A DNA stretch of 64,000 nt from Myxococcota bacterium (GCA_046754285.1 JBHHVJ010000005.1:26330-90329); one strand, 5' to 3'. Numbered from the stretch's first letter, positions 5,926 through 64,000 are shown. Numbers and translations are program-made. The notes: generated from the sequence alone by a model not told the origin.

Positions 5926-6052
5926 GCGTCCGAGCCCGTCCACGCCGGTCCAGACTATGCCGCGAGGTCCGTTCCCGGGCCAGCCGGGGTGGCGAGGGCG
6001 GTGGTATCCTGGGAGCTCGCGCCGGGTACACGAGCGCAAGGCGGGAGGCGGG

Positions 6053-6721
6053 ATGAGCACCTACGTCCTGATGCGGATCCTGGAGTCGGCGCCCAAGCGC
6101 TACGACGCCGGCATCGGTCTGCTCACACTCGGGGCCGTGGGCCGCGCGTACGATCGGCTGGTGAGTCGGATCCCGGAGGGGGCGCGCGTGATCGACATCG
6201 GCTGCGGCACCGGCGCGCTCACGCTCCGCGCCGCCCGACGCGGCGCCTGCGTCAAGGGGATCGATGTGAACCCCGAGATGCTGGAACGGGCGAGGGAGCG
6301 CGTCCGGGCCGCGGGCCTCGAGGCCCGGGTCGAGCTCGTGGAGATGGGCGTGGCCGAGCTCGACCGGGAGGAGCGGGAGAGCTACGACGTCGTGGTCAGC
6401 GGGCTCTGCTTCTCGGAGCTGAGCCCCGACGAACAGCGGTACGCGCTCCGGCAGGTGGCACGTCTGCTGCGCGCGGATGGGCTGCTGCTGGTCGCCGATG
6501 AGGTTCGCCCTTCGGGTCCCGTGGCGCGGGCCGCGCAGAGATTGCTGCGCGCCCCGCTGGTGGCGATCACCTACCTCATCACCCAGCAGACGACCCATCC
6601 CGTCTCGGGGCTCCCCGAGCGGATCGCGGAGAGCGGCCTCCGAATCGAGTCGCAGCGCTCGAGCGCGCTCGGCGGTTTCATCGAGATCGTCGCGCGCAGG
6701 GCGGGAGCCGGGCCGGGATGA
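6053..6721 (+). CDS. class I SAM-dependent methyltransferase
   Basis: ATG at 6053. SAM-binding motif I VIDIGCGTGALTL and the downstream acidic loop. Its stop overlaps the next start (ATGA at 6718-6721). Confidence 0.8.
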   Translation: MSTYVLMRILESAPKRYDAGIGLLTLGAVGRAYDRLVSRIPEGARVIDIGCGTGALTLRAARRGACVKGIDVNPEMLERARERVRAAGLEARVELVEMGVAELDREERESYDVVVSGLCFSELSPDEQRYALRQVARLLRADGLLLVADEVRPSGPVARAAQRLLRAPLVAITYLITQQTTHPVSGLPERIAESGLRIESQRSSALGGFIEIVARRAGAGPG

Positions 6722-7875
6722 GCCGGCTGCGCTCGCTCGCTCTGGCGGGGGTCCAGACGCTGCTCCGGATGCTCCCCTTTCCGTGCCGAACCGGTCTGGT
6801 CGAGATCGGTCGTCCCGGTCCCGACTCGCCCGTGCTTCTCACGGGAAACTTCTGGCTCACCGTGGAGCGCGTGAAGCGCGCCCTCGGGGGACTCGACGCC
6901 TTTCTGCTCGTCGCAAACAGCCGGGGCGTCAACGTCTGGTGCGCCGCGACAGGGGGTCTGCTGACCAACCACGACGTGATCTCGGTTCTGAAGACCAGCG
7001 GAGTCGGTGAGCGGGTGAAGCACCGTCGGCTGATTCTGCCTCAGCTCGCGGCCACGGGGATCGAGGGCGGAGAGGTCCACAAGAAGACGGGTTGGCGCGT
7101 GCACTGGGGCCCGGTGCGATGCGAGGACCTGCCCGTGTATCTCCGGAACGGCCTCCGCAAGACCGTCGCGATGCGGACCGTCAGCTTTCCCTGGCGCGAG
7201 CGGCTCGAGATGGCCGTGGCCTGGGCCTTCCCCATCTCCCTGCTCTCGCTCGTGCTGCTCCCCTTCTGGCCCGGGGGCGTGGCGCCGCTCATGGCGGTCG
7301 TGTGGGCTCTCTCGCTCCTCCTCTTTCTGGCCTTCCCCCTCTACGAGCCGCTCGTGCGCGGGAAGAAGAAGCACATCGGCTTCGTCTTCTTCGATTTCGG
7401 GGAACGCGGGATCGTGCTGCTCCTCTGGCTCGTGCTGCTGGCCGGACTGGCCCTGACCAGCGCGCTCTCCGACGACTACAGCGCTGGATTCGCGGTCCGC
7501 TGGGGGGTGGCCTCGTTCGTCGTGCTCGCGATCCTTGGACTCGACCTCACCGGGAGCACGCCGCTGTACAAGAGCGGGCTGCACGAGGACCGGCAGCTCC
7601 GCATCACGCTGGACGAGGCGCGTTGCAAGGGCGCCGGGTTCTGCGAGCAGAGCTGTCCGACCCACGTCTTCGAGATGGAGCCGTCGCGGAAGCTCGTGCG
7701 CCTGCCACGCTCCGAACGCTGCGTCCAATGCGGCGCCTGCATCGTGCAGTGTCCCTTCGATGCGCTCTTCTTCCAGAGCCCCGACGGAGAGGTCGTGAGC
7801 CCCGAGACGATCCGCCGCTACAAGCTCAACCTGCTCGGGACGCGGCGCGTGCAGGCGCCGGAGCTGACCCACTGA
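6718..7875 (+). CDS. fused HgcA-like corrinoid-binding/transmembrane protein with C-terminal HgcB-like 4Fe-4S ferredoxin domain
   Basis: N-terminal PDSPVLLTGNFWLT...GVNVWCAATGG...LILPQLAATGIEG...VHWGPVRCEDLPVYL resembles the HgcA/CFeSP corrinoid domain, including the cap-helix Cys (codon 6940-6942). Roughly 4 hydrophobic helices span residues ~160-285. C-terminal CKGAGFCEQSCP plus CVQCGACIVQCP ferredoxin motifs. Confidence 0.7.
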   Translation: MSRLRSLALAGVQTLLRMLPFPCRTGLVEIGRPGPDSPVLLTGNFWLTVERVKRALGGLDAFLLVANSRGVNVWCAATGGLLTNHDVISVLKTSGVGERVKHRRLILPQLAATGIEGGEVHKKTGWRVHWGPVRCEDLPVYLRNGLRKTVAMRTVSFPWRERLEMAVAWAFPISLLSLVLLPFWPGGVAPLMAVVWALSLLLFLAFPLYEPLVRGKKKHIGFVFFDFGERGIVLLLWLVLLAGLALTSALSDDYSAGFAVRWGVASFVVLAILGLDLTGSTPLYKSGLHEDRQLRITLDEARCKGAGFCEQSCPTHVFEMEPSRKLVRLPRSERCVQCGACIVQCPFDALFFQSPDGEVVSPETIRRYKLNLLGTRRVQAPELTH

Positions 7876-8378
7876 GTCGCGCGCCGCTGGAGCCTCGGCC
7901 CGGAAGCTACGTGCTCGTGCTCCGTGAGGCGCGCCCGGGCCGGGCCGTCCGCTACGGCCGCGGGCGCTCCCTCAAGACCGGGACGGGCTTCTACCTCTAC
8001 GTGGGCAGCGCTCTGGGGCCGGGTGGAGTTCGTGCGCGCGTCCTGCGTCACTGCCGAGCCACGGGCGCCGTGCACTGGCACATCGACCGTCTGCGGCGGC
8101 AGCTCGAGCTCGTGCGCGTGTGGTTCTCGTACGGCACACATCGCATGGAGTGTCGCTGGGCCGCGGCTCTCGCCGGGCTGCGCAGCGCCACATTGCCCGC
8201 GGCGCGCTTCGGGGCCTCGGACTGCCGCTGTCCAGCCCATCTCATTCGCTTGCCCCACGAGCCACGTCCAATCCGCCCGCAAGTGCGGTCACCCGATGGG
8301 GCCGGCGTCGGCCCGGCGGTATACTGCGCCGATCCCGCGGAGCTCCTGACCTTCGCGAGGCAGAAGGGGGAACGCTGA
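7872..8378 (+). CDS. DUF123 (GIY-YIG/Uri-superfamily nuclease-like) protein
   Basis: GSYVLVL...GFYLYVGSALG...HWHIDRL...GASDCRCPAHL motifs. The start is uncertain: CTG at 7872 overlapping the upstream TGA, or GTG at 7911. Confidence 0.6.
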   Translation: MSRAPLEPRPGSYVLVLREARPGRAVRYGRGRSLKTGTGFYLYVGSALGPGGVRARVLRHCRATGAVHWHIDRLRRQLELVRVWFSYGTHRMECRWAAALAGLRSATLPAARFGASDCRCPAHLIRLPHEPRPIRPQVRSPDGAGVGPAVYCADPAELLTFARQKGER

Positions 8379-8379
8379 G

Positions 8380-8661
8380 ATGGACCTGAAGCTCTTCGCA
8401 ACCGTGTTCGGGACGATCTTCGTTGCGGAGCTGGGCGACAAGACGCAGCTGGCCACGCTGCTCTACGCCTCGCAGAAGAGCAACCCCCGGCTGACCGTGT
8501 TCGTCGCCGCCGCCGCGGCCCTCGTCCTGACCTCCGCGATCGGTGTGCTGGCGGGATCCGTGGTCGCCCAGTACCTGAGCGAGCGCGTTCTCTCCACGCT
8601 CGCGGGCGTGGGCTTCATCGCGGTCGGGGCCTGGACTCTGCTGCAGACCTACACGAGTTAG
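8380..8661 (+). CDS. UPF0016 (TMEM165/GDT1) family membrane protein, single-repeat form
   Basis: Signature ELGDKTQ motif in the first helix. 93 aa with three hydrophobic segments. Confidence 0.75.
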   Translation: MDLKLFATVFGTIFVAELGDKTQLATLLYASQKSNPRLTVFVAAAAALVLTSAIGVLAGSVVAQYLSERVLSTLAGVGFIAVGAWTLLQTYTS

Positions 8662-8707
8662 AGTCGACGGCGTACGGACGCACGGCGAGAAGACGAGGGA
8701 TGAAGCC

Positions 8708-9121
8708 ATGGAGATCAATGGAATCGCGCACGTGATGCTCACGGTGACGGATTTCGCGCGCGCTCGTGAGTTCTACGCTGCGCTGCTACCCTTCCTGGGG
8801 CTGAAGCCCGTCTTGGATGGCGAGGGTTTCTACTACTGCGTGGGCGGGCGAACGGCGTTGGGGATCCGCGCCTGCGCCCCAGAGCTCAGCCGGGAGCACT
8901 TCGTGCAGGAGCGGGTGGGGCTTCATCATCTCTGTTTTCGAGCGCGCACACGCGAGGACGTGGACGCGGTGCACCGACGCGTCGTGGAGCTCGGGGCCCG
9001 GATCGTGCACGAGCCCGAGGAGGGACCCTGGGCTCCAGGCTATTACTCGCTGCTCTTCGAGGACCCCGACGGGATTCGTCTGGAGGTCAACCACGTCCCC
9101 GGCAAGGGTCTGCTGGCGTAG
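8708..9121 (+). CDS. VOC (glyoxalase/bleomycin-resistance/dioxygenase) family protein
   Basis: INGIAHVMLTVTDFARAREFY...HLCFRA...DPDGIRLEVN pattern of the VOC fold. Confidence 0.75.
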   Translation: MEINGIAHVMLTVTDFARAREFYAALLPFLGLKPVLDGEGFYYCVGGRTALGIRACAPELSREHFVQERVGLHHLCFRARTREDVDAVHRRVVELGARIVHEPEEGPWAPGYYSLLFEDPDGIRLEVNHVPGKGLLA

Positions 9122-9150
9122 GTCGGGGTCGTGGAGGCCGTGACGTCCCT

Positions 9151-9720
9151 CTACTTCGCTCGCTCGACGTAGCGCAGCTCTCCGGGGTCGACCCGGATGC
9201 GATCGCCCGGGTTGATGAACGTGGGAACCGGAAGGGTCACGCCGTTCTCGAGCGTGGCCGGCTTGTTGGACTTGGCCGCCGTCTGACCCTTCAGGACGGG
9301 CTCGGTCTCCCGCACGGTGATCTCCACGGTCTTGGGGAGGCGAATCCCGATCGGCTTGCCGTCGAGCAGCTCGATCATCACACGCAGCCCCTCGTGCAGC
9401 CAGGGTCGCGCTTCCTCGAAGATCTCCCCCCCGACCTGGATCTGATCGTAGGTCTCGGCGTCCATGAAGACGGCGGTCTCCCCTTCGCCGTAGAGGTAGT
9501 CCATCTCGCGCGTCTCCACGATGGCGCGCTCGACGAAGTCGGCAGCCGAGAACTTGACCGCCCGCTGCGTGCCATCGAGCAGGTTCCGCAGCTTCGTCTG
9601 CACGAACCCTCGCTTGTTGCCGGGCGTGCGGTGCTCGAACTCGAGCACGCGATAGGGGATCCCTTCGTAGAGGATCGCCGTCCCCCGCCGCAGCGCCGTG
9701 GCCTGAATATCCGCCATCAT
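9151..9720 (-). CDS. efp: translation elongation factor P
   Basis: 189 aa. GTAILYEGIPYRVLEFEH...TKLRNLLDG...KPATLENGVTLPVPTFINPGDRIRVD...YVERA is full-length EF-P architecture. Confidence 0.9.
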   Translation of the reverse strand: MMADIQATALRRGTAILYEGIPYRVLEFEHRTPGNKRGFVQTKLRNLLDGTQRAVKFSAADFVERAIVETREMDYLYGEGETAVFMDAETYDQIQVGGEIFEEARPWLHEGLRVMIELLDGKPIGIRLPKTVEITVRETEPVLKGQTAAKSNKPATLENGVTLPVPTFINPGDRIRVDPGELRYVERAK

Positions 9721-11156
9721 CTCTCCTCGATCTGTCTCAGGCGCGCGAGCAGACGCTCCCAGATGTCGCCGAAGCCTCCGTTGGACATGATCAGCGCCAC
9801 GTCGTGTCCGCTGCGACCACGCACCAGGTGCTCGATGATCTCGTCCACGCGCGGGACGAAGGCCGCCTCCACGCCTCGCGCGCGCAGCTCCTCGACGACC
9901 CAGGCTGGGCGCATGCGCTCCGCCTCGGGCACGGCCTCGGCGCGGTGCACCTCCGCGACCACGACCCGATCAGCGCCGGAGAGCGCCTCGACATAGTCCG
10001 CCTCGAAGATTCGCCGGCGGCTGCTGTTCGTGCGGGGCTCGAAGACCGCCCAGAGACGACGATCCGGGAAGCGGGCCCGCATGGCCGCCGTGGTCTCGCG
10101 AACCGCGGTCGGGTGATGGGCGAAGTCATCCACGACAAGCATCCCCGCCGCCTCGCCCCGGACCTCCTGCCGACGACGAACGCCGCGATACCCCTCGAGG
10201 GCGTCGGCGATGGTCTCGAAAGAAACGCCCAGGCCGTGACAGAGCGCCGCCGAGCCCAGCGCGTTCTCGACGTTGTGGCGGCCGTGCATCGGCACTCGCA
10301 GTCGACCGAGCCTCCGCTCCCCACGCCAGACGGTGAAGCTCGTTCCCTGCTGATCAAAGCTCACGTCGGTGGGGTGCCAGAGTGCCTCGGCCCCGAAGCC
10401 GTAGCCCTCCACGGGCGCCGGACAGCCGCGGAGCACCTCCCGTACGGCCTCGACGTCGGTGGCCGCGACGATGCGTCCCTCCCCGGGAACCCGCTCCAGC
10501 AGAGCGTGAAAGGACTCCTGAATCTCCTCGAGAGAGTCATAGATGTCCGCGTGGTCGAACTCGCAGGAGGTCAGCAACACGCTGCGGGCGTCGTAGTGGA
10601 GGAACTTGGGTTTCTTGTCGAAGAAGGCCGTGTCGTACTCGTCTCCCTCGATCACGAAGTGCTCACCCTCACCGAGCCGGAAGCCGCCGGCGAGGTTCTC
10701 TGCGACGCCGCCCACGAGAACGCTCGGGTCCAGCCCCGCGTGGGTGAGGATCCAGCCCACGAGGCTCGTGCAGGTCGTCTTGCCGTGCGTGCCCGCAATC
10801 ACGACGCTGTGCTTTCCGCGGAGAAAGAAGAAGTGAACGGCATCCGAGAAGCTGAGAAACGGGAGCCCCGCATCGAGCGTCGCCTGCGCTTCCGGGTTCT
10901 CACGCCGCACGGCATTGCCGATCACGACGAGATCCGGGGGCTCGCGCAGCAGGTGATCGGAGTCGAAGCCCTTCGCGACCGAGATGCGGGCTTGGCGGAG
11001 CTGCTCGCTCATCGGGGGGTAGGCGTCGAGATCGCTTCCCGTGATGTGGAAGCCCCGATCGGCGAGCATGCAGGCGAGGGAGCCCATCCCCGTCCCCGCC
11101 ACGGCGACGAGGTGGATGTGTCGAATCGACTCGATGGCCGGAAGCTCACGCGGCAA
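9717..11156 (-). CDS. mpl: UDP-N-acetylmuramate:L-alanyl-gamma-D-glutamyl-meso-DAP ligase (Mur ligase family, Mpl-type)
   Basis: HIHLVAVAGTGMGSLACMLADRGFHITGSD and the P-loop IAGTHGKTTCTS. Mur-ligase length and domain order. Its stop overlaps the efp start. Confidence 0.85.
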   Translation of the reverse strand: MPRELPAIESIRHIHLVAVAGTGMGSLACMLADRGFHITGSDLDAYPPMSEQLRQARISVAKGFDSDHLLREPPDLVVIGNAVRRENPEAQATLDAGLPFLSFSDAVHFFFLRGKHSVVIAGTHGKTTCTSLVGWILTHAGLDPSVLVGGVAENLAGGFRLGEGEHFVIEGDEYDTAFFDKKPKFLHYDARSVLLTSCEFDHADIYDSLEEIQESFHALLERVPGEGRIVAATDVEAVREVLRGCPAPVEGYGFGAEALWHPTDVSFDQQGTSFTVWRGERRLGRLRVPMHGRHNVENALGSAALCHGLGVSFETIADALEGYRGVRRRQEVRGEAAGMLVVDDFAHHPTAVRETTAAMRARFPDRRLWAVFEPRTNSSRRRIFEADYVEALSGADRVVVAEVHRAEAVPEAERMRPAWVVEELRARGVEAAFVPRVDEIIEHLVRGRSGHDVALIMSNGGFGDIWERLLARLRQIEER

Positions 11157-38925: not shown

Positions 38926-40332
38926 TCAGCTCTGGATGACGAGCTTCGAGAGGGACGTGCGGCGCAGATTCGTCTTCTGAATGGTGCGAACCAGCTCCGT
39001 CACCTTCTCGGTGTCGGTCTCGAAGGGGTTGTTGCAGATCACGCGCACATTGAGCAGGTTTCCGAGCCGGATGTTCGACCAGTCCAGGTCGTACTGGATG
39101 TTGTTCTGCCGGGCCAGCTTGATGAAGTCTCCTCGCATTCGCGCACGCGTATCCTGGGGCGGCTCCGTCTTGGCCTTCTCGATCTCGGCGTCGCTGAAGA
39201 CGCGGTCCACTCGATCCGATCGCTCCAGAAGATAGAAGAATCCCCGATCGGTACGGATGTCGTGGTACTGGAGGTCGATCATGAAGATCCTCGGATCGTG
39301 CCACGCGATCTGCCGTCGGCTGGCGTACTCACGGATCAGCTTGCGCTTGATCACCCAATCGATCTTGCGGTCGAGCCGCTCCGGATCGTCTTCGAGGCAG
39401 TCGAGGATGTGCTCCCACTCCTCGATGCCCTGGCGAAGCTGGGCGCTGACGGGGTACTGCTCCATGTAGCGTCGCGCCATCTCGCAGTAGTCACGCTGGA
39501 TCTCGATTGGCGAGTACTCGCGTCCGCTCTCGAGGCGCAGCTTCTTCTTGCACGTCGTATCGTACGAGATGTCCTTGATGGCCTTCACGGGATGTCGGAG
39601 CGTGAAGTCCTTGTTGATGAAGTTGTCCTCGATCATCTGAAGGACGATCGCGCACGTCGCGATCTTGACGAAGTTCGTGTACTCCGACATGTTGGAGTCG
39701 CCGACGATCACGTGCAGTCGCCGATACTTCTCACGATCCGCGTGCGGCTCGTCGCGCGTATTGATGATCGACCGGTCGTTGGTCGTCGTCCCCGAGATCT
39801 TCTGATAGATGTGCTGGGCGCGCTGGCTGATGCAGTAGTGAACGCCGTCCTGGGTCTGGAAGACCTTTCCGGCGCCCGTGAAGATCTGCCGCGTGACGAG
39901 GAACGGGATCAGCTGCTCCGCGAGATAGTAGAAGTCCACGTCGCGATCGACGAGGTAGTTCTCGTGACAGCCGTAGGAGTTGCCAACGAAGTCGGTGTTG
40001 TTCTTGAAGATCGAGAGCTTTCCAGCCACGCGCTCTTCTCGAATCTTCTCTTCGGCATAGAGCTGGAGGTCCTCCAGGATCCGCTCCCCCGCGCGATCGA
40101 AGATCACGAGGTCCCGCGGGCTCGCGCACTCCGGGGTCGCATACTCCGGGTGGCAGCCGGTGTCCTGGTAGAAGCGTGCGCCGTTCTCGAGGAATACGTT
40201 CAGGAAGTGCTCGGTGGTGATCAGCTTCTCGAACAGGAACCGAATCGCCTTCTCCACAGGGAGGGTCTTGCGCCCCTCCGGAGTGAAGATAATGCCGTAC
40301 TCGGTCTCCAGGCCGTAGATCCGCTTCTGCAC
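38926..40332 (-). CDS. pafA: Pup--protein ligase PafA
   Basis: MQKRIYGLETEYGI..., the carboxylate-amine-ligase fold shared with Dop, and IINTRDEPHAD...YRRLHVIVGDSNM. It is the shorter of the two paralogues and sits downstream of prcA, as in actinobacteria. Confidence 0.85.
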   Translation of the reverse strand: MQKRIYGLETEYGIIFTPEGRKTLPVEKAIRFLFEKLITTEHFLNVFLENGARFYQDTGCHPEYATPECASPRDLVIFDRAGERILEDLQLYAEEKIREERVAGKLSIFKNNTDFVGNSYGCHENYLVDRDVDFYYLAEQLIPFLVTRQIFTGAGKVFQTQDGVHYCISQRAQHIYQKISGTTTNDRSIINTRDEPHADREKYRRLHVIVGDSNMSEYTNFVKIATCAIVLQMIEDNFINKDFTLRHPVKAIKDISYDTTCKKKLRLESGREYSPIEIQRDYCEMARRYMEQYPVSAQLRQGIEEWEHILDCLEDDPERLDRKIDWVIKRKLIREYASRRQIAWHDPRIFMIDLQYHDIRTDRGFFYLLERSDRVDRVFSDAEIEKAKTEPPQDTRARMRGDFIKLARQNNIQYDLDWSNIRLGNLLNVRVICNNPFETDTEKVTELVRTIQKTNLRRTSLSKLVIQS

Positions 40333-40336
40333 GATG

Positions 40337-41020
40337 CTATCCGCTCAGCAGCTCCCGGATCTCGTCCGTTCCGAGCTTGCGGAACTTCCGACCTTCACGG
40401 GCGCGCTCAAGCACCGCCACCTCGAGGCTCTGCTCGTTCAGCTCGCCCACACCGCCGTTGGCGGCCAGCAGAGACTTGCGGCTGAGCTTGACCGCTTCAT
40501 CGAGCTTCATCTCCTCGCTCCAGCTTTCGCGCAGCACGCCGCAGATCTTGTCCGCGTCCCCACCGATCGAGGCATAGCGCTCGTGATCGTTCACGCTCCC
40601 ATCGTACAGAATCTGGTAGAGCGCGTTCTGGGTCTCCCCCACCTCGGCGACGAGCAGCTCCACCTCGAAGGGCTTCATTTCCCGCGTGAAGATGCTTCCC
40701 AGAACCGTGGAGTACTCGTTCGCCAGGCTCTTGGCCATGACGTCGTCGCGGCAGTACGAGTACCCGCGCAGGTCGGCGTAGCGGATCCCAGCCTTGCGCA
40801 GGTTCTCGTACTCATCGAACTTCCCGACGGCCGCAAAGGCGATGCGATCGTAAATCTCGGAGATCTTGCGCAGGCTCGCACTGCGGTTCTCACCCATCAG
40901 CATGATGCCACCGGCGTACTCCAGGGCTACGATCGGCTTGCCGCGAGCGATCCCCTTGCGGGCGTACTCGGCCTTGTCCTGATACCACTGCTCCGGCGAG
41001 ACATAGAGCGGTGCGGTCAT
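40337..41020 (-). CDS. prcA: 20S proteasome alpha subunit
   Basis: YVSPEQWYQDKAEYARKGIARGKPIVALEY. No propeptide or Thr1. Overlaps prcB by 4 nt. Confidence 0.88.
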   Translation of the reverse strand: MTAPLYVSPEQWYQDKAEYARKGIARGKPIVALEYAGGIMLMGENRSASLRKISEIYDRIAFAAVGKFDEYENLRKAGIRYADLRGYSYCRDDVMAKSLANEYSTVLGSIFTREMKPFEVELLVAEVGETQNALYQILYDGSVNDHERYASIGGDADKICGVLRESWSEEMKLDEAVKLSRKSLLAANGGVGELNEQSLEVAVLERAREGRKFRKLGTDEIRELLSG

Positions 41021-41808
41021 GTTCCTCCACCTGTCGACCCGCGCTCGGTGACGCGTTCATAGGCCTGAAGCAGCTCCCGATCGGAGACCTCATCAACGCC
41101 GGTTCGCGTGATCAGCAGAAAGGTCGGATAGATCTCGCGTCGGACGTCGAACCCCCCGGTTCCGCGGTCCTCATCCGCCGCATCCACCAGCGCCTCGACC
41201 CCCGCTTCGATGGCCATGTTGCGGGTGAGGCCCGACGCACGCCAGGACTTCTTCAGGCTGGAACGCGCGTCCTTGCCCCCCGAACCCGTGGCGTAGTAGT
41301 CGGTCTCGGCGTAGCGACCTCCGGTCACGTCGAACTTGTAGATCCTCCCCCGGCCCTTCTGGAGATCGTAACCGGCAAAGAGCGGCATGACGACCAGTCC
41401 CTGCATGGCCGCGGGAAGATTCTGCCGAATAAGGAACGATAGCCGATTCGCCTTCCCCTCGAAGGTGAGCGCCTGCCCCTCGAGCTTCTCGTAGTGCTCG
41501 AGCTCGAGCCGAAACATGTGGGTCATCTCGATCGCCGGCCCCGCCGCACCCGCGATGGCGATCGCGCAGCTCTCATCGATCTTGTAGACCTTCTCGATGT
41601 CACGCGTCGCCACCTGATAGCCTTCGGTCGCCAGACGGTCGCCCGCCATGAGCACGCCATCCTCGTAGACCAGCGCCAGGACCGTGGTGCCGTGCGGCAT
41701 CTGGATCACCGACCAGTCAATCTTGCGGAAGTCGGGGACCAGGCCGGAACAATCCGACTGCAGATACTCGAAGAAGCTCGACCCCTGATAGGACTGGCCT
41801 GGAAACAC
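41017..41808 (-). CDS. prcB: 20S proteasome beta subunit (with propeptide)
   Basis: Propeptide followed by HG|TTVLALVYEDGVLMAGDR, with the catalytic Thr1 context. Confidence 0.9.
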   Translation of the reverse strand: MFPGQSYQGSSFFEYLQSDCSGLVPDFRKIDWSVIQMPHGTTVLALVYEDGVLMAGDRLATEGYQVATRDIEKVYKIDESCAIAIAGAAGPAIEMTHMFRLELEHYEKLEGQALTFEGKANRLSFLIRQNLPAAMQGLVVMPLFAGYDLQKGRGRIYKFDVTGGRYAETDYYATGSGGKDARSSLKKSWRASGLTRNMAIEAGVEALVDAADEDRGTGGFDVRREIYPTFLLITRTGVDEVSDRELLQAYERVTERGSTGGGT

Positions 41809-41811
41809 GCT

Positions 41812-42066
41812 CTACTCGCCTCCCCTCTGGACGTAGTTCTTCACGAACTCTTCGGCGTTCTCTTCGAGCACCTCGTCGATCTCGTCGATGAGGGAATCCA
41901 TCTCCTCCTTCAGCTCCTCACCGCGCTTGGCCATCTTCTTCTGCCCCGAGGAGTCGTCGGTCTTCCCGTCGCCCCCGGCACCGTCGTCACTCTTCTTCTT
42001 CTGTGTCTGATCCGCGGCGCCCCAGATCGGCGTCAACGTCTCGTCTGCGTGTCGATAGGTCTTCAT
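41812..42066 (-). CDS. pup: prokaryotic ubiquitin-like protein Pup (ends GGE)
   Basis: The C-terminal half EEMDSLIDEIDEVLEENAEEFVKNYVQRGGE is near-collinear with M. tuberculosis Pup (...DDLLDEIDDVLEENAEDFVRAYVQKGGQ). GAGGAGAGG lies upstream of the ATG. Confidence 0.9.
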   Translation of the reverse strand: MKTYRHADETLTPIWGAADQTQKKKSDDGAGGDGKTDDSSGQKKMAKRGEELKEEMDSLIDEIDEVLEENAEEFVKNYVQRGGE

Positions 42067-42076
42067 GGTCCTCTCC

Positions 42077-43561
42077 TCAAGCCGTCAAGTTGCGAACCAG
42101 ATCCTCCACGGTCGGGCTCGCATCGAGGAGTTCCTCCACGTGCGCCTTCGTCCCCTTGAGTGGCTCGTTCATCAGGATTCGCTTGATCGGATCGTCTCCC
42201 ATGTTAAACGAGATCGAGTCCCAGTTCACTCCGAAGATCGCATCCGAGAATCTTCGGATGCACTCCCCACGAAAATAGGCGCGCGTGTCCGTCGGGGGCT
42301 GCCGGATCGCGCGTTGGATCGCGTCGTCCTCGACGATCCGCTCCACCCCACCGCGGCGCTCGAGCAGAAAGTAGAGCCCCTTCTCGGGACGGATGTCGTG
42401 GTACTGCAGATCGAGCATCTGCACCTGCGGGTGCTTCCAGTCGAGGTTCCTCTTGTGGATGTACTCCTGGATGATCTTCCGTTTGATGACCCAGTCGACC
42501 TCACGGTCGAGCTGCATGGGATCCTCGGCGAGTCGCTCCAGGACCGACTCCCAACGGACCAGGACATCCTTGGTGATGGGATCGATCTCGCGGGAGCTGA
42601 AGTACGTCAGCGCGGCCTCCAGGAACTCCTGCTGGATCTGGATCGCGCTGCGGCGCCCGCCGCGCTCCATCACGTACTCGCGTCGACAATCCGGATCGTG
42701 TGAGATCTCCTTGATGACCCGCACGGGATCCGTGATCGCGAGGCTCCGGTTCAGAGCCCCGTCCTCGATCATCGCGAGCACGATGGACGTGACGCCCACC
42801 CGCAGATAGGTCGAGACCTCGCAGAGATTCGAATCGCCCACGATCACGTGGAGACGTCGATACTTCTCGCGGTCCGCATGCGGCTCATCGCGCGTATTGA
42901 TGATGGGCCGCTTGACCATCGTGTCGAGGGCCACCTCGGTCTCGAAGAAGTCCGCACGCTGGCTGATCTGGTAGTCGCAGGGGGAGGCACGGTTCTCGCT
43001 TCCGACCTTTCCCGATCCACAGAAGATCTGCCGCGTGACCAGAAACGGCGTCATGTACTCCACGATCTCCTTGAACGGGGTTCGGCGCTCGATCAGGTAG
43101 TTCTCGTGATTCCCGTAGGAGTTCCCCTTGCGGTCACTGTTGTTCTTGTAGATCAGCAGCACGTTCCCCGGGGGCAGGAGTGCACAGGCGGCCCGACGAG
43201 CGATCTCCAGCGTGCGTTCGCCCGCACGCTCGTAGGCGATCAGGTCGCAGACGTTCGTGATCTCGGGTGTCGAGTACTCAGGGTGGGCGTGGTCCACGTA
43301 GAAACGTGCCCCGTTGGCGAGCGTCTTGTTCCGCGCGATGTTCTCCTGCTGGTTCGGCGTGTACTTCTCCCCTTCGACGTTGAACCCGCGCGCGTCAGCG
43401 AGCGGATTCTCCTGGTCGTAGTCCCACAGGATCTGTGCCTCGCAGTTCTCCTCGTAGGCGTTCACCAGAAGGACGCAGCTCGATATCGGATCGAAGTCAC
43501 GATCGTTCTGGACCGTGATTCCGTACTCGATCTCGGACCCGATGACCTTGGGGAGAGGCAT
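42077..43561 (-). CDS. dop: depupylase/deamidase Dop
   Basis: PafA paralogue (VIGSEIEYGI..., IINTRDEPHAD...YRRLHVIVGDSNL). It is 26 aa longer than the pafA product and lies between arc and pup, as in actinobacteria. Confidence 0.8.
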   Translation of the reverse strand: MPLPKVIGSEIEYGITVQNDRDFDPISSCVLLVNAYEENCEAQILWDYDQENPLADARGFNVEGEKYTPNQQENIARNKTLANGARFYVDHAHPEYSTPEITNVCDLIAYERAGERTLEIARRAACALLPPGNVLLIYKNNSDRKGNSYGNHENYLIERRTPFKEIVEYMTPFLVTRQIFCGSGKVGSENRASPCDYQISQRADFFETEVALDTMVKRPIINTRDEPHADREKYRRLHVIVGDSNLCEVSTYLRVGVTSIVLAMIEDGALNRSLAITDPVRVIKEISHDPDCRREYVMERGGRRSAIQIQQEFLEAALTYFSSREIDPITKDVLVRWESVLERLAEDPMQLDREVDWVIKRKIIQEYIHKRNLDWKHPQVQMLDLQYHDIRPEKGLYFLLERRGGVERIVEDDAIQRAIRQPPTDTRAYFRGECIRRFSDAIFGVNWDSISFNMGDDPIKRILMNEPLKGTKAHVEELLDASPTVEDLVRNLTA

Positions 43562-43609
43562 GTCTTGGTCTCGGCTTCCTCCGCGGTTTGAGCAGCTCCA
43601 GGCACAGGC

Positions 43610-45433
43610 CTAGAGGTACTGACCCGATCCCCCCACCGTCTCGATCGAGCGTTCAGTACGGCTGATGCCACTGATGAGCGTGCGCACGTTGATGATGCGC
43701 TCTCCCTTGCGACCGGAGATTCGCGCCCAGTCATCGGGGTTGGTCGTGTTGGGCAGATCCTCGTTCTCCTTGAATTCCTCCCGTACCGCGTCCAGCAGAT
43801 CGTCGGTCTTGATCCCCGTCTCACCGTGCTCGATCGAGCGCTTCACACCCTTCTTCTTGGCGCGATCGACGATGTTGCGGATCATGGCCCCGCTGGCGAA
43901 GTCCTTGAAGAAGAAAATCTCGCGCTCGCCCTTCGCGTAGGTGACCTCCAGGAACTTGTTCTCCTCGGTCTCCGCGTACATGTTCTCGATGACCGCGTCC
44001 ACCATACCGCGCACGATCTTCTGAGGCTCGTCCCCGTACCGCGCTCGTGCCTCTGCGTGGTACGGAAGACCGGTCTTGAGATACTTGATGAAGATCTCCC
44101 GCGCCCCCTTCGCATCGGGTCGGTTCACCTTGACCTTCAGGTCCAGTCGGCCGGGCCGCAGCACGGCGGGATCGATCAGGTCCTGCCGGTTCGAGGCGCC
44201 GATCACGATCACGTTCCGAAGCGACTCGACGCCGTCGATCTCCGAGAGGAACTGGGCCACCACCGTGGCCTCCATGTCCGAGGAGATTCCCGACCCACGC
44301 ATGCGGAAGAGCGAGTCCATTTCGTCGAAGAAGATCACGACGGGAACGTCCTCCTCGGCCTTCTCGCGTGCGTTCTTGAAGACTTCGCGGATCTTGTGCT
44401 CGGTCTCGCCCACGTACTTGTTCAGCAGCTCCGGACCTTTGACGTTCAGGAAGTAGCTCTTGGCTTCTCCCCCACGGACCTCCGCGATCCGCTGCGCGAG
44501 GCTGTTCGCAACCGCCTTTCCGATCATCGTCTTTCCGCAGCCCGGGGGACCGTAGAGAAGGATGCCCTTGGGCGGCGCCAGGTCGTACTTCCGGAACTCG
44601 TCGGCGTGCAGGTACGGTAGCTCGATCGCATCGCGCAGCACCTCGATCTGATCGCCGAGGCCGCCGATGTCCTCATAATTGACGTTCGGCACCTCTTCCA
44701 GCACCACCTGGTCCACCGTGGACTTGGGCAGCTTCTCGACGCCGAAGCCCGTGCGCGGGCTGACCAGGAGGTTGTCCCCGGCCTTCAGACGCTCTCGCCG
44801 CATCGGCTGGCTCAACGTCACGACGCGCTCTTCGTCGGCGCGGCCGAGCACGATCACGCGTCCATCGTCGAGCACCTCCGAGACCTGCGCCACCTCGCCG
44901 CGCGGCTCGAAGCCGCAGGCGTCGACCACGTTGAAGGCCTCGTTCAGGACCAGGAGCTGGCCCTCCATGAGATCCTCGATGCGGACGCTGGGGTGCACGT
45001 TGACCCGCATCATCTTGCCATCGACGTTGATCTCGATCGTTCCGTCCTTGTTCGCGCGCTCAAACGTCCCGTAGGTGTTCGGCGGCGCACAGAGCTTGTC
45101 CACTTCCTCCTTGAGCATGTCGATCTGCTGCTTCGCATCCTGGAGAGTGTTGACGAGCTTCTCGTTCTGCCGCTCGGCGTCGTAGATCTGCTGCCGAGCG
45201 CGCTCGTGCCTCTGTCGCAGGAGCTCGTACTCCATGAGCAGACGCTCGACCCGGCGCACGAGATCCCCCGCGTCCGGCCCCAGGAAGTGCAGCGCGTCCC
45301 TCAAGCTCTCCAGATCATCGAGATCCCGCGCACCCTCCGGCCGCGGCTCGTCGCGTGTGCCCGGGGACGAGATGCGCTTCATCACGTCCCGCACGAAACC
45401 TCGTCGCCCAGATCCTGATCCCGACTCGCTCAT
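43610..45433 (-). CDS. arc: proteasome-associated AAA ATPase ARC/Mpa
   Basis: N-terminal coiled coil, OB-like region, AAA module (GPPGCGKTMIGKAVA, VVIFFDEMD) and C-terminal ...GSGQYL docking motif. Confidence 0.92.
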   Translation of the reverse strand: MSESGSGSGRRGFVRDVMKRISSPGTRDEPRPEGARDLDDLESLRDALHFLGPDAGDLVRRVERLLMEYELLRQRHERARQQIYDAERQNEKLVNTLQDAKQQIDMLKEEVDKLCAPPNTYGTFERANKDGTIEINVDGKMMRVNVHPSVRIEDLMEGQLLVLNEAFNVVDACGFEPRGEVAQVSEVLDDGRVIVLGRADEERVVTLSQPMRRERLKAGDNLLVSPRTGFGVEKLPKSTVDQVVLEEVPNVNYEDIGGLGDQIEVLRDAIELPYLHADEFRKYDLAPPKGILLYGPPGCGKTMIGKAVANSLAQRIAEVRGGEAKSYFLNVKGPELLNKYVGETEHKIREVFKNAREKAEEDVPVVIFFDEMDSLFRMRGSGISSDMEATVVAQFLSEIDGVESLRNVIVIGASNRQDLIDPAVLRPGRLDLKVKVNRPDAKGAREIFIKYLKTGLPYHAEARARYGDEPQKIVRGMVDAVIENMYAETEENKFLEVTYAKGEREIFFFKDFASGAMIRNIVDRAKKKGVKRSIEHGETGIKTDDLLDAVREEFKENEDLPNTTNPDDWARISGRKGERIINVRTLISGISRTERSIETVGGSGQYL

Positions 45434-59800: not shown

Positions 59801-61072
59801 ATGGCGAGGGCGATCCTCTTCGCCACGATCCTGATCGACTTCGTCGGCTTCAGCATCCTGTTGCCCGTGCTTCCCACCTACCTGCAGCGCCAGGGCTACT
59901 CCGGCGGCGAGGTGGGCTTGATCCTCGCCCTCTACGTGATCGGGCTGGTGATCTTCCTGCCGTTCTGGGGCTGGATCTCCGACCGCGTCGGGCGGCGGCC
60001 CGTGATTCTGCTCTGCCTGCTCGGCACCAGCGCCTCCTTCGCCGGCCTCGTGGTGGCCGCGAGCCTGGCGGCGTTCTGCGTCGCGCGCCTGCTCGGCGGC
60101 TTCTTCGGGGCCAGCGTGGGCACGGCGCAGGCCTACGTCACGGACATCACGGACGAAGAGGGGCGCGCACACGGGCTGGCCCTTCTCGGCGGCGCTGCGG
60201 GGGGGGGAATGGTGCTCGGTCCGGCCCTCGGCGGGATCCTCGGCGGGATCCACGAGCTGCTGCCGATCTACGTGCCGGCGCTGCTCGCGCTCGGCAACGC
60301 CGTGCTCGCGGCGTTCTTTCTCCCCGAGTCCCGCCGGGACACGATCCGCCCGGCCCGAAGCCAGCCCATCCTGCCGGCCCTGATTCCCACGCCGCTGCTC
60401 CTGCTGCTGCGGGCACACGACAACCGCACCCGGACCTATCTCTACCTGTTCTTCCACATCTTCGCGGCCTTTGCCGCGCTCGAGGCGATGTTCCCCCTCT
60501 ACGCCCGGGCGGCTCTGGGCTGGGGGGTCCTCGAGACCGGGCTCTTCCTGGGCTACCTGGGTCTGGCGATGGGGTTGACCCAGGGGCTCGCGGTCGGGCG
60601 CGCCACCGCCGCCGTGGGTGAGGTCCCGCTCGTGGTCGTGGGGCTGGCCCTCTCGGGAACCTGCCTGCTCACGCTCGCGGCCGCGCGCAGCACGCCGGCC
60701 CTGGCGCTGCTCGGCCTGGGCGTCGCGCTGGGCAACGGCCTCTACCTTCCGACCTTCACCAGCCTCTTCTCGAAGCACTGCGGCGAGGAGACCCGGAGTG
60801 GCGAGTACCTGGCGCAGAGCCAGTCGATGCTGAATACGGGCCGTGGGGTCGGCTTTCTCTGGGGTGGCTGGGCGCTCGAGCGGCTCGGGCTGACGGCTCC
60901 GTTCGTGCTGGGGGGCATCGGCATTCTGCTCGCGCTGGGCATCTTTGCCGTCGGCGTTCGCTACCTCGTGCCACGCCCCAGCCTGACCTCGGGTCATCGG
61001 GAGACACCCGAGATTCGGTATTCTCCAGTTTCCCGGGGGGGTGGAGCGAAAGAGCCCAGGAGGAGCCAATGA
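59801..61072 (+). CDS. MFS transporter (Tet/TCR-like)
   Basis: MARAILFATILIDFVGFSILLPVLP..., motif A-like GWISDRVGRRPV, about 12 hydrophobic segments. Alternative ATG at 59777. The 58244 ORF start is an artefactual upstream extension. Confidence 0.8.
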   Translation: MARAILFATILIDFVGFSILLPVLPTYLQRQGYSGGEVGLILALYVIGLVIFLPFWGWISDRVGRRPVILLCLLGTSASFAGLVVAASLAAFCVARLLGGFFGASVGTAQAYVTDITDEEGRAHGLALLGGAAGGGMVLGPALGGILGGIHELLPIYVPALLALGNAVLAAFFLPESRRDTIRPARSQPILPALIPTPLLLLLRAHDNRTRTYLYLFFHIFAAFAALEAMFPLYARAALGWGVLETGLFLGYLGLAMGLTQGLAVGRATAAVGEVPLVVVGLALSGTCLLTLAAARSTPALALLGLGVALGNGLYLPTFTSLFSKHCGEETRSGEYLAQSQSMLNTGRGVGFLWGGWALERLGLTAPFVLGGIGILLALGIFAVGVRYLVPRPSLTSGHRETPEIRYSPVSRGGGAKEPRRSQ

Positions 61073-62772
61073 GCGAGGCGGTGGAGCGAGAACGCCTGGA
61101 CGTGGACATCCTTTTCGTGGGTGCCGGACCCGCCACCCTCGCCGCTGCGATTCGGCTGGTGGATCTCTGCCGGGAGAAGGGCCGAGATCTCCCCGCGATG
61201 CTGGTAATCGAGAAGGCGTCAGAGATCGGCGAGCACCAGCTCTCGGGAGCGGTGATGAAGCCCAACGCGATCGCCGAGCTGATGCCCGACTACCGGGAGA
61301 AGGGCTTCCCCTACCACTACGAGGTCACGAAGGACCGCTTCTACTTCTTCACCCGCAAGCGCGCGATCCGGCCGCCGATCACGCCACCCCAGTTCGCCAA
61401 CCACGGCAACCTGGTGGTCTCGCTGAGCGATGTGGTCAAGTGGCTCGCGGAGCAGGCCGAGGGACGCGAGGTCGAGATCTACCCCGGCTTTCCTGCGGCC
61501 CGGCTTCTCTTCGCGGACGGGCGGGTGGCCGGTGTGCAGATCCAGGACCGGGGCGTCGACAAGGACGGCAAGCCGAAGAGCGTCTTCGAGCCCGGGCCCG
61601 AAATTCATGCCCGCTGCGTGGTCCTCGGCGAGGGCCCGCGCGGCTCGTGCACGAGGCAGCTCCTGGAGCGCTTCCCCGACCTGCAGGGTCCGAACCCGCA
61701 GGTCTTCGCCACCGGCATCAAGGAGATCTGGAGGATCAAGCCCGAGAATCACGTTCCGGGCCGCGTGATCCACACCATGGGCTGGCCGGCCGACCCGGAG
61801 ACCTTCGGTGGGTCGTGGATCTACGATCTGAAGGACTCCCTCGTGTCGATCGGCTTCGTGACGGGGCTCGATGCGAGCAGTCCCTACAACGACCCGCACG
61901 ACAACATGCAGCGTTTCAAGCTGCATCCCTTCATGCGCCGCCTGCTCAACGGCGGCGAGATCGTTCGCTACGGCGCGAAGACGATCCCGGAGGGCGGCCT
62001 GTTCAGCCAGCCACGGCTCTACGGCGACGGCGTCCTGATCGTGGGAGACTCGGCGTCGCTCTGCAACGGCGAGAAGCTCAAGGGTGTGCACATGGCGCTC
62101 AAGAGCGGAATGCTCGCGGCCGAGACCCTCTACCAGGCGCTCGAGAAGGACGACTTCTCATCGGCCACGCTCAGCCGAGTCCAGGAGCTCTACCGTGCCT
62201 CCTGGGCCTATGCCGAGCATCGGCGCTCGCGGAACTTCCACGCCGCCTGGAAGTGGGTGCACCGCATGCCGCCCTGGCTCGGCTGGGTGAGGCAGCTTCC
62301 CTTCGTGCTCAACACCGGCGTCTCGATGCTCACGGGGGGTCGGGGCCTGCAGGCACGGATCACGGCCGAGTCCGACCACACCCACTACCACCGAATCTCC
62401 GAGCTCACGCGCGGAGAGCTGGCCAAGAAGGAGAAGGTGGCCTACGACAACCGCTACACCTTCGACAAGGTGACCGCGGTGGCTCACGCTGGAGCACGTC
62501 ACGAGGTGGACCAGCCGCACCATCTGGTCGTGGCGGATCCGGAGCTCTGTTCGACGCGCTGTGCCGAGGAGTACGACAACCCCTGCGAGCACTTCTGCCC
62601 GGCCGCGGTGTACGAGATGATCGACGATGAGATGCGACCCGGTCGGAAGAAGCTCGTGATCCACCACGAGAACTGCGTCCACTGCAAGACCTGTGACATC
62701 GCTGACCCCTACCAGGTGATCACCTGGACGACTCCGGAGGGCGGAGACGGGCCGGACTACACACAGATGTGA
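61069..62772 (+). CDS. electron-transfer flavoprotein:ubiquinone oxidoreductase
   Basis: FAD motif ILFVGAGPATLAAAIRL and the C-terminal 4Fe-4S region CEHFCPAAVY...CVHCKTCDIADPYQVITWTTPEGGDGPDYTQM. Confidence 0.92.
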   Translation: MSEAVERERLDVDILFVGAGPATLAAAIRLVDLCREKGRDLPAMLVIEKASEIGEHQLSGAVMKPNAIAELMPDYREKGFPYHYEVTKDRFYFFTRKRAIRPPITPPQFANHGNLVVSLSDVVKWLAEQAEGREVEIYPGFPAARLLFADGRVAGVQIQDRGVDKDGKPKSVFEPGPEIHARCVVLGEGPRGSCTRQLLERFPDLQGPNPQVFATGIKEIWRIKPENHVPGRVIHTMGWPADPETFGGSWIYDLKDSLVSIGFVTGLDASSPYNDPHDNMQRFKLHPFMRRLLNGGEIVRYGAKTIPEGGLFSQPRLYGDGVLIVGDSASLCNGEKLKGVHMALKSGMLAAETLYQALEKDDFSSATLSRVQELYRASWAYAEHRRSRNFHAAWKWVHRMPPWLGWVRQLPFVLNTGVSMLTGGRGLQARITAESDHTHYHRISELTRGELAKKEKVAYDNRYTFDKVTAVAHAGARHEVDQPHHLVVADPELCSTRCAEEYDNPCEHFCPAAVYEMIDDEMRPGRKKLVIHHENCVHCKTCDIADPYQVITWTTPEGGDGPDYTQM

Positions 62773-63150: not shown

Positions 63151-64000
63151 TCAGCCGCAGCCCCCCGTCTCACCGCAGTTCGGACAGCTGTAGCAGGCGC
63201 CGGCTCTCTGCATGATCGTGCCGCAGTCCGTGCAGGGAGGGGCGTCTTCGTGACCCACGAGCGCCACATCACTCTGGCTCCCGCCGCGAATCGGCACGAC
63301 CCGCTCCCGGGACCCAGGGACCGGCGCGGGGGCGCCGACGTTGGTCTGGGCCTCGCCGAGCTGCGCATCGGGATCCGCCGCATCGGCCTCTCCGCTCAAG
63401 AAGGTCAGCCCGAGCCAGCGGAAGACGTAGTCGGTCACCGACTTGGCAAAGGGAATCGCGCTGTTCTGCGTGAAGCCCGACGGCTCGAAGCGCGTGTGGC
63501 TGAACTTGTCCACGAGCGCCTTGAGCGGGACGCCGTACTGCAACGCGATCGAGGTCATGATCGCGACGGTGTCCATCAGGCCCGAGATCGTGGAGCCCTC
63601 CTTGGCCATCTTGAGGAAGACCTCACCGGGCTGGCCGTCCTCGTAGAGGCCGACCGTGAGGTAGCCGTCGTGGCCCGCGATCGAGAACTTGTGTGTCACG
63701 GCCTCCCGAACATCCGGCAGCTTCCGGCGCAGCGGTCGCACCTCGCCGTCGCCTGAGGCCGCCTGGGCGGGCTCGTCCTCCTGACGCGTGCTGAGCGGCT
63801 GGGTGCGCTTGGAGCCGTCCCGATAGATCGCGAGCGCCTTGAGCCCCAGCTTCCAGCCCTCCAGATACGCGGCCTCGATGTCCTCGACCGTCGACTCCTT
63901 GGGCATGTTCACGGTCTTGGAGATTCCGCCCGAGAGGAACGGCTGCACCGCACCCATCATCCGAAGATGACCCAGGTAGTGAATGACACGGGAACCTCGA
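63151..64000 (-). CDS. nrdJ: vitamin-B12-dependent (class II) ribonucleotide reductase, C-terminal part (5' end beyond window)
   Basis: The frame is open to the window edge (…[29 protein letters not shown]…[12 protein letters not shown]…). Cys-rich tail [27 protein letters not shown]. Confidence 0.88.

Follow-up and report, generated by a model that had tools for sequence, protein, structure and literature searches.

The 64,000-nucleotide stretch of DNA from a Myxococcota bacterium that was analyzed here (GCA_046754285.1 JBHHVJ010000005.1:26330-90329, hereafter the window) carries on its plus strand two overlapping genes, cpaM (6053..6721) and an hgcAB-like fusion gene (6718..7875), which, judged by their sequences, form a module of an S-adenosylmethionine (SAM)-dependent methyltransferase and a membrane-anchored corrinoid/iron-sulfur protein related to the mercury-methylating HgcAB. 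Comparison of genomes revealed that this gene pair is inherited as a unit. The two genes are proposed, with a rough probability of 0.55, to constitute a self-contained methyl relay, in which a methyl group would be transferred from SAM via CpaM and a Cys-on methyl-corrinoid to an acceptor. The partnership of the two proteins, their architecture and their conserved residues were established by these comparisons, and each of the chemical steps is put forward by homology.

Fused HgcAB proteins were first described in 2015 (PMC4646819), and they form a clade apart from HgcA (PMC10083202). Among their carriers is the aerobe Breoghania sp. L-A4 (PMC10083202). Genes of this type are regularly caught in surveys for mercury methylators and are then put aside; the Hg-MATE protocol treats fused HgcAB with caution, as cultured carriers produced no methylmercury (PMC10087281, PMC5893877). 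Their pairing with cpaM is known to database curators and seems unexplored in the searchable literature, in which no discussion of a methyltransferase neighbor of fused HgcAB was found. The use of SAM by HgcAB, in combination with a SAM methyltransferase that is attached or even fused to the HgcAB-like protein, makes the function of the fused family directly testable.

Identity and genomic linkage of the gene pair

The 385-amino-acid (aa) product of the hgcAB-like gene matched the NCBIfam equivalog model NF043039 with 439.3 bits (E 1.4e-131), well above the curated cut-off of 285 bits, with residues 12-350 aligning to positions 5-349 of the 350 in the model; both this model and the GenBank record name it 'HgcAB-like fusion protein'. 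The 222-aa product of cpaM, a class I SAM-dependent methyltransferase, matched NF043040, 'corrinoid protein-associated methyltransferase CpaM', with 293.7 bits (E 6.7e-88; curated cut-off 180 bits) from residue 3 to 216 over positions 1-216 of the 216 in the model, besides the Pfam families Methyltransf_25, Methyltransf_11 and Methyltransf_31. The gene pair is not new: it belongs to a curated family pair and is annotated correctly, and GenBank already holds the identical sequences of both proteins, encoded on a 101-kb contig of a Myxococcota metagenome-assembled genome (MAG), under the names HgcAB-like fusion protein and CpaM. The first-pass annotation of the window, made from the sequence alone, had noted that the methyltransferase stop and the start of the fusion gene overlap in ATGA (6718..6721, plus strand), and this start/stop overlap for translational coupling can indeed be read in the sequence: the ATG at 6718-6720 shares bases with the last sense codon of cpaM and with its TGA at 6719-6721.

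A scan of one genome per species yielded 186 relatives, of which the best 80 loci, with 51-68% identity, were kept. The labels of these loci include Binatia, Gemmatimonadota, Myxococcota, Acidobacteriota, Gammaproteobacteria, Methylomirabilales, Dehalococcoidia, Desulfobacterales, Chloroflexota and Marinimicrobia/Fidelibacterota, as well as Methanococcoides, Bathyarchaeia and Hydrothermarchaeota. Two loci that had no upstream sequence (L013 and L022) were left out as uninformative, and among the remaining 78 genomes cpaM was located directly upstream and on the same strand in 76, including two in which it is cut by the contig end (L015 and L049). A strong and full CpaM match was present directly upstream at 74 of the 80 loci, and in 66 of these 74 the junction was estimated to lie within 12 nt. 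At the loci L019 and L020 (about 6000-9200), the hgcAB-like genes are 64-68% identical and are preceded by unrelated open reading frames (ORFs), one of which in L019 appears hydrolase-like by eye. All-against-all clustering of the ORFs within 7 kb at 81 loci revealed no third conserved gene, the next family being represented at 8 of the 81. Moreover, the pairwise distances of CpaM and of the fusion protein were correlated in a Mantel (mirror-tree) analysis with r 0.72, a value reached in 0 of 999 permutations, none of which rose above 0.16.

When 1.84 billion cluster representatives were searched exhaustively, 1,870 relatives were obtained with E<=1e-3, of which 200 had E<=1e-30. Among the best 150 representatives at 50% identity, 13 were single chains in which a full CpaM domain stands at the N-terminal side of the HgcAB-like part, and the six single-chain fusions that were scored all exceed both curated cut-offs. 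A further search with one of these triple fusions as query detected 313 proteins at E<=1e-20; the 120 triple fusions listed among them measure 557-629 aa, with a query coverage of 94-100%. They derive from several independent sources, including Draconibacterium, Calditrichaeota and hydrothermal vent metagenome records, and are located on contigs of up to 2.9 Mb. An origin as frameshift artefacts was excluded on the basis of the linkers of 15-60 aa, the 33-46% identity to the window protein, and the many independent contigs involved. That both proteins act as one machine is most strongly indicated by these Rosetta-stone fusions, in which the methyltransferase stands beside the corrinoid domain. 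The adjacent methyltransferase had been suggested as a possible partner enzyme in the first-pass annotation, with a survey of homologues as the way to check it, and this suggestion was substantiated by the conserved adjacency, the correlated distances and the single-chain fusions elsewhere. One of the triple-fusion genes (P0412, on 21 contigs) is accompanied at 8191-9939 of the loci L084-L086 by genes for an Fe/Mn superoxide dismutase and an MsrA/MsrB methionine sulfoxide reductase; confined as they are to a single lineage, these neighbors do no more than hint at a connection with oxidative stress.

Domain architecture and conserved residues

The three-part architecture that had initially been read from the 385-aa ORF, comprising an N-terminal ~150 aa resembling HgcA or CFeSP (corrinoid iron-sulfur protein), hydrophobic helices, and a ferredoxin module, is borne out by the Pfam CdhD model, by four helices in an AlphaFold2 model, and by several Fer4 models. 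The corrinoid-binding domain of the CFeSP/HgcA type (~residues 20-145; 6775..7152) was recognized at the level of both sequence and structure. Pfam CdhD (PF03599) covers residues 23-135 with E 7.8e-15, and residues 21-138 align with the corrinoid domain of the solved CFeSP large subunits 2h9a and 4c1n with E 7e-13. A Foldseek search with the AlphaFold2 model, which was based on 53 close homologues and is of moderate quality (mean predicted local distance difference test, pLDDT, 63.5), returned the published HgcA model 9a0b_A as the top match in the PDB library (E 4.5e-11), followed by five CFeSP structures with root-mean-square deviations of 3.2-3.7 Å over ~130 residues; the matches include 2ycl, 4c1n, 2h9a and 4djd. 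These significant matches run counter to the condition, a lack of any for residues 1-150, under which the first-pass annotation would have been refuted. Within this domain, the cap-helix motif GVNVWCAATGG (residues 70-80; 6925..6957) contains Cys75, encoded by the TGC codon at 6940-6942. This cysteine is invariant in 81 of 81 aligned relatives, in which the motif takes the form G-x-N-(V/I)-W-C-(A/S/G)-(A/S)-(T/A)-G-G; in the AlphaFold2 model the segment is of low confidence (pLDDT 42).

The membrane domain (7192..7557) is predicted to consist of four transmembrane (TM) helices (residues 159-180, 185-213, 232-250 and 256-280), as derived from the secondary structure of the AlphaFold2 model at moderate confidence. 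A Lys/Arg-rich loop (residues 214-231) separates TM2 from TM3, because of which both soluble domains would, by the positive-inside rule, be on the same, cytoplasmic side of the membrane; likewise, the presence of four helices rather than the five of HgcA would bring the ferredoxin domain to the side of the corrinoid domain. The conserved post-TM4 motif is D276-L-T-G-S-T-P-x-Y-K-S-G-L-H289 (7543..7584), of which D276, L277, G279, S280, P282, K285, S286 and L288 are invariant in the 53 homologues, and which is highly conserved across the 81 loci.

The C-terminal ferredoxin domain, matched by several Fer4 models at residues 296-350, contains two iron-sulfur motifs of different completeness, in agreement with the initial reading of one canonical and one three-Cys motif. 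Motif 1, of the form CxxAxxCxxxCP (CKGAGFCEQSCP; 7624..7659), is a three-Cys site with C303, A306, C309 and C313, and its second position is never a cysteine in the 81 relatives, being occupied by A, V, T, P, S or I. Motif 2 is a canonical CxxCxxCxxxCP (CVQCGACIVQCP; 7720..7755), of which the four cysteines (C335, C338, C341 and C345) are invariant in 81 of 81. Exactly eight cysteines are invariant in the aligned relatives, i.e., C75, C303, C309, C313, C335, C338, C341 and C345, and apart from the cluster ligands C75 is the sole conserved thiol of the fusion protein. In HgcB, cluster A is ligated by Cys20, Cys23, Cys26 and Cys60 and cluster B by Cys50, Cys53, Cys56 and Cys30, with cluster B nearest to the cobalt (PMC7305189). 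When this ligand scheme is transferred to the fusion protein, the distal cluster, at which electrons would enter, appears to have lost one ligand and would be held by C303, C309 and C345 only. Ferredoxins that lack the middle cysteine normally carry a [3Fe-4S] cluster, as in 7Fe ferredoxins, and the distal three-Cys cluster would probably be of the [3Fe-4S] type. A role of the three-Cys cluster as a SAM-binding site like that of radical SAM enzymes was considered and is unlikely, in view of its ferredoxin fold, the absence of a radical SAM domain, and the four cysteines found in sister subfamilies; neither a radical SAM domain nor a CxxxCxxC motif was detected in the window proteins with NCBIfam and Pfam.

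Motif 2 is followed by a conserved extension (residues 347-376, SPxGxxxxPExxRxFKLNLLGxR; 7756..7845) in which G357, R366, K369, L370, N371, G374 and R376 are invariant. As noted before, this tail is free of cysteine: the window protein has none after C345, and a tail cysteine occurs in only 4 of the 81 relatives, at position 351. The NVWCAATGG motif, the three-Cys motif and the cysteine-free tail are thus present as the first-pass annotation had stated, but they are signatures of the entire clade and not peculiarities of this gene. Two subgroups can be distinguished within the clade, one with Val317 ('CPTxVFEV'), to which the window protein belongs and which occurs mostly in lineages labeled Myxococcota, Binatia, Gemmatimonadota or Acidobacteriota, and one with Cys317 and His325, which stems mostly from anaerobe-type lineages and archaea. 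In fused subfamilies that are more distant, as in the CpaM-HgcAB-like triple fusions, two complete four-Cys motifs are mostly present, and the three-Cys site typifies the clade of the window. One of these distant subfamilies (P0301, P0308, P0342 and P0329) has an additional ~140-190 mostly hydrophobic, apparently membrane-spanning residues at the N-terminus and a cap motif of the form N(I/V)WCSSLxG (NVWCAAGAG in P0329), with two complete four-Cys motifs in most members; P0342 and P0329 end in a CxCxxC tail, a possible metal site that is lacking in the clade of the window.

CpaM was modeled by AlphaFold2 as an ordinary class I Rossmann methyltransferase fold (pLDDT 83). Its nearest structures in Foldseek were Coq5, RebM/AtmM, MitM and PmtA, among ~1,800 generic class I methyltransferases that are uninformative on the substrate. 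The SAM-binding motif I (D48-I-G-C-G-T-G54; 6194..6214) was read from the sequence; G50, C51 and G52 do not vary among 51 homologues, and conservation reaches at least 90% at D48, T53 and G54. D71, E122, D149 and E150 are invariant as well, the N-terminus (MSTYxLMxxLESxPxRYD) is almost so, and a conserved T-Q-Q-T-T motif was placed in a lid helix of low confidence. In a Methanococcoides sp. MAG, the gene upstream of the hgcAB-like gene (L032, 4928-5620) is chimeric, with a 72-aa helicase-like segment (AGPGAGKT, read by eye) in place of CpaM residues 1-60, including the GCGTG loop. CpaM may be defective in Methanococcoides, or the chimera may be an assembly artefact; a defect would matter, as M. 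methylutens is one of only two organisms carrying fused HgcAB in which mercury methylation was assayed.

A proposed methyl relay from SAM to a corrinoid and its alternatives

A relay from SAM via CpaM to a methyl-corrinoid is favored because SAM is the methyl source of true HgcAB and because cpaM is linked to the fusion gene and conserved with it. Studies with purified true HgcAB (PNAS 2024) established that the methyl group originates from SAM and not from methyl-tetrahydrofolate, that a methyl-cob(III)alamin ligated by a Cys thiolate is the intermediate, and that the clusters of HgcB act as electron mediators (PMC11588087). In the proposed relay, CpaM would take up SAM and pass the methyl group to Co(I) in the corrinoid that the membrane protein would bind by its N-terminal domain, whereupon the thiolate of Cys75 would serve methyl-Co(III) as lower axial ligand, as in true HgcA. 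The methyl group would subsequently be handed on, in the form of a carbanion or radical equivalent, to an electrophilic acceptor beyond the reach of SAM alone, and the C-terminal ferredoxin domain would re-reduce the cobalt to Co(I), with electrons passing from the distal three-Cys cluster to the proximal [4Fe-4S] cluster.

Several characterized systems resemble parts of this scheme. HgcA and HgcB of Pseudodesulfovibrio mercurii ND132 (NF040863 and NF040864) share with the window protein the CFeSP-type corrinoid domain, the cap-helix cysteine as predicted lower cobalt ligand, the membrane domain, the two-cluster ferredoxin partner, and SAM as the likely methyl source; however, they are two polypeptides, whereas the window encodes a single one with a dedicated SAM methyltransferase gene attached. 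CFeSP (AcsC/CdhE) and its methyltransferase MeTr of the Wood-Ljungdahl pathway have a homologous corrinoid-binding Rossmann domain (2h9a, 4c1n and 4djd) and follow the same logic, the corrinoid being charged by a separate methyltransferase and re-reduced by an iron-sulfur cluster. In contrast to the membrane-bound window protein with its Cys75, CFeSP is soluble and has no cysteine at the cap-helix position, and it receives its methyl group from methyl-tetrahydrofolate through a TIM-barrel enzyme instead of a class I SAM methyltransferase. The CFeSP large-subunit model NF003195 scored 76.5 bits against a cut-off of 306, with only its C-terminal corrinoid domain aligning, and no acs or cdh genes were found near the pair among the window neighbors and the 81 loci. 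The reactivation of MetH by its AdoMet domain and flavodoxin offers a parallel in which the one-electron reduction of cobalt is driven by methylation of Co(I) with SAM, as would be the case for the window pair; the AdoMet domain has a fold other than that of class I methyltransferases, and MetH is soluble, His-on, and uses SAM for repair only. Finally, TsrM and the other cobalamin-dependent (class B) radical SAM methylases have their Co(I) methylated by SAM before the methyl group reaches a substrate that SAM cannot attack directly; their iron-sulfur cluster is held by three cysteines (discussed in PMC11588087), whereas the three-Cys site of the window protein is part of a ferredoxin fold.

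A number of observations weigh against the relay. CpaM folds like a generic small-molecule methyltransferase (Coq5/UbiE, RebM, PmtA), and nothing in this fold suggests that CpaM recognizes a corrinoid. For its reaction with SAM, true HgcAB requires no additional methyltransferase (PMC11588087), such that a loading enzyme is not obviously needed. Two of the 78 informative genomes (L019 and L020) have the hgcAB-like gene with no cpaM within 8 kb, and in the AlphaFold2 model the pLDDT of the cap helix and of the ferredoxin domain is below 50, which makes the geometry of a relay unreadable from it. Literature searches with CpaM, 'HgcAB-like fusion' and the Pyrococcus furiosus accessions retrieved no functional study or mention of CpaM.

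As a sub-case of the relay, the acceptor could be a soft metal or metalloid other than mercury (As, Sb, Se, Te, Sn or Bi), with the pair serving as a corrinoid alternative to detoxification or volatilization of the ArsM type, although this is doubtful. Methyl-corrinoids are the classic donors of methyl groups to metals, as carbanions or radicals, a chemistry for which PMC11588087 cites density functional theory work, and the true hgcAB of P. mercurii is, as reported in a preprint, under the control of an ArsR-like regulator. A possible ArsR-like helix-turn-helix gene is present near the pair at 3 of the 81 loci, as judged by eye from a cluster representative; however, ars, mer or tellurite genes are not conserved beside the pair. 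ArsM-type models are the best named matches of CpaM outside its own family (E 6e-17), but they remain far under their cut-off (61 versus 510 bits) and cover the SAM-binding core only. CpaM has just two conserved cysteines, C51 within motif I and C119, instead of an As(III)-binding set, and the fusion protein contributes no conserved free thiol besides C75. Metalloid binding by CpaM in the manner of ArsM was rejected on account of these lacking cysteines.

It is unlikely that CpaM is a conventional C- or O-methyltransferase acting on a membrane quinone or lipid, with the HgcAB-like protein as its anchor or redox partner. This would agree with the structural proximity of CpaM to quinone methylases of the Coq5/UbiE type, at a TM score of 0.75, and to PmtA, a phospholipid N-methyltransferase, with its Joint Genome Institute (JGI) annotation as UbiE/MenG, and with the integral membrane nature of its partner. 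Nevertheless, UbiE/MenG models match CpaM far under their cut-off (54.8 versus 158 bits), and such a function leaves unexplained both the invariant cap-helix cysteine in an intact corrinoid domain and the transfer of the pair as a unit among bacteria and archaea that have very different quinones and lipids.

A role in cobalamin processing or trafficking appears improbable. In that case, the membrane protein would capture a corrinoid by its cysteine, the ferredoxin domain would reduce it and CpaM would methylate it, such that methylcobalamin would be the product. Precedents exist in the Cys-on corrinoid binding by the B12 transporter BtuM, as far as this is described where it is cited in PMC7305189, and in the established reductive methylation with SAM during MetH reactivation; moreover, the module occurs in very diverse genomes and has no conserved substrate-related neighbors. 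Against this, the CFeSP/HgcA-type domain holds its corrinoid as a fixed prosthetic group in every characterized relative, the TM domain has no transporter similarity detectable with Pfam or Foldseek, and the pair has neither btu or cob linkage nor a cobalamin riboswitch upstream.

The acceptor is probably not Hg(II), as may be deduced from the clade's lack of the cysteines by which HgcB handles mercury and from the negative culture tests. That the clade would nonetheless represent a real mercury methylase like HgcAB, possibly in oxic soils and waters, with CpaM only speeding up methyl loading, is very improbable. The two systems have their corrinoid domain, cap-helix cysteine, membrane domain and two-cluster ferredoxin in common, as well as SAM as the methyl donor of true HgcAB, and the strictly conserved cap-helix cysteine of HgcA (Cys93 of ND132) corresponds to C75, for which cobalt ligation is predicted. 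However, the fusion protein scored 161.4 bits against the true HgcA model NF040863 (cut-off 275) and 45.6 bits against the true HgcB model NF040864 (cut-off 99), and it is predicted to have four TM helices where HgcA has five. The accepted cap motif of HgcA in the high-stringency list of Hg-MATE, N(V/I)WC(A/S)(A/S/G)GK, ends in GK, which is replaced by (T/A)GG in the 81 relatives and by TGG in the window. HgcB has two complete CxxCxxCxxxCP motifs together with Cys73, which lies about 12 residues past the second motif and is essential, and C-terminal Cys94/95, which are needed for full mercury-methylation activity (PMC7305189); the window protein, with its three-Cys motif 1, has neither thiol, and in all 81 relatives Cys73 and Cys94/95 have no equivalent, the corresponding stretch being F-x-S-P-x-G. 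This clade-wide absence of the HgcB thiols fits the earlier proposal of a substrate other than mercury.

The statement in the first-pass annotation that tested carriers of fused HgcAB-like genes did not methylate mercury was confirmed for P. furiosus and M. methylutens, which made no methylmercury (PMC4646819, PMC5893877). Their fused HgcAB (NF043039; Podar 2015, Gilmour 2018) belongs to the same family as the window protein and has the same architecture, with nothing essential differing, and the copy in the Methanococcoides MAG is 55% identical to the window protein and has the same gene arrangement. On the other hand, a negative whole-cell test is, as Podar et al. pointed out, no proof that the fused enzyme cannot catalyze the reaction; only these two cultured carriers were tested, and with cpaM disrupted at its N-terminal side in the Methanococcoides MAG, this genus is possibly a poor test. 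For metagenome annotation, the combination of a cpaM neighbor, a TGG cap motif and missing HgcB thiols may serve as a rule by which such genes are not to be counted as mercury methylases. It is also very improbable that the Val317 subgroup, with its three-Cys distal cluster, is a SAM-to-corrinoid methylase that tolerates oxygen and, in oxic soils and waters, alkylates mercury or a different toxic metal, which, if true, would make it a source of methylated metals outside the anaerobes that are now held responsible.

Neighboring genes in the window

The genes surrounding the pair encode housekeeping or unrelated functions, including a DsbA-like protein, DUF2905, DUF123, a GDT1-family protein, a glyoxalase, efp, mpl and dnaB. 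The DUF123 gene (7911-8378, plus strand) starts 35 nt past the stop of the hgcAB-like gene and may be co-transcribed with it; this adjacency is absent from the other 80 loci. No riboswitch or other Rfam family was found near the pair, and a scan of the window for promoters and terminators came out empty, as expected at its guanine-plus-cytosine (GC) content.

A gene cut by the end of the window (63151-64000, minus strand) encodes, according to Pfam, a ribonucleotide reductase C-terminus with a TSCPD domain behind it. This layout is presumably that of a class II, adenosylcobalamin-dependent ribonucleotide reductase, and the gene would be consistent with the use of corrinoids by the organism. 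An electron-transfer-flavoprotein:ubiquinone oxidoreductase (61069-62772, plus strand) points to a respiratory, quinone-using lifestyle, unlike that of the strict anaerobes with true hgcAB. Moreover, Pfam revealed a complete Pup-proteasome cluster (38926-45433, minus strand), encoding a PafA-like Pup ligase, two proteasome subunits and Pup (84 aa), as well as a Dop-like second protein of the Pup-ligase family and an Mpa/ARC AAA ATPase. The GC content of this cluster at codon positions 1 and 2 is below that of the neighboring genes, and its presence is unusual for a genome labeled Myxococcota; the cluster may have been acquired horizontally.

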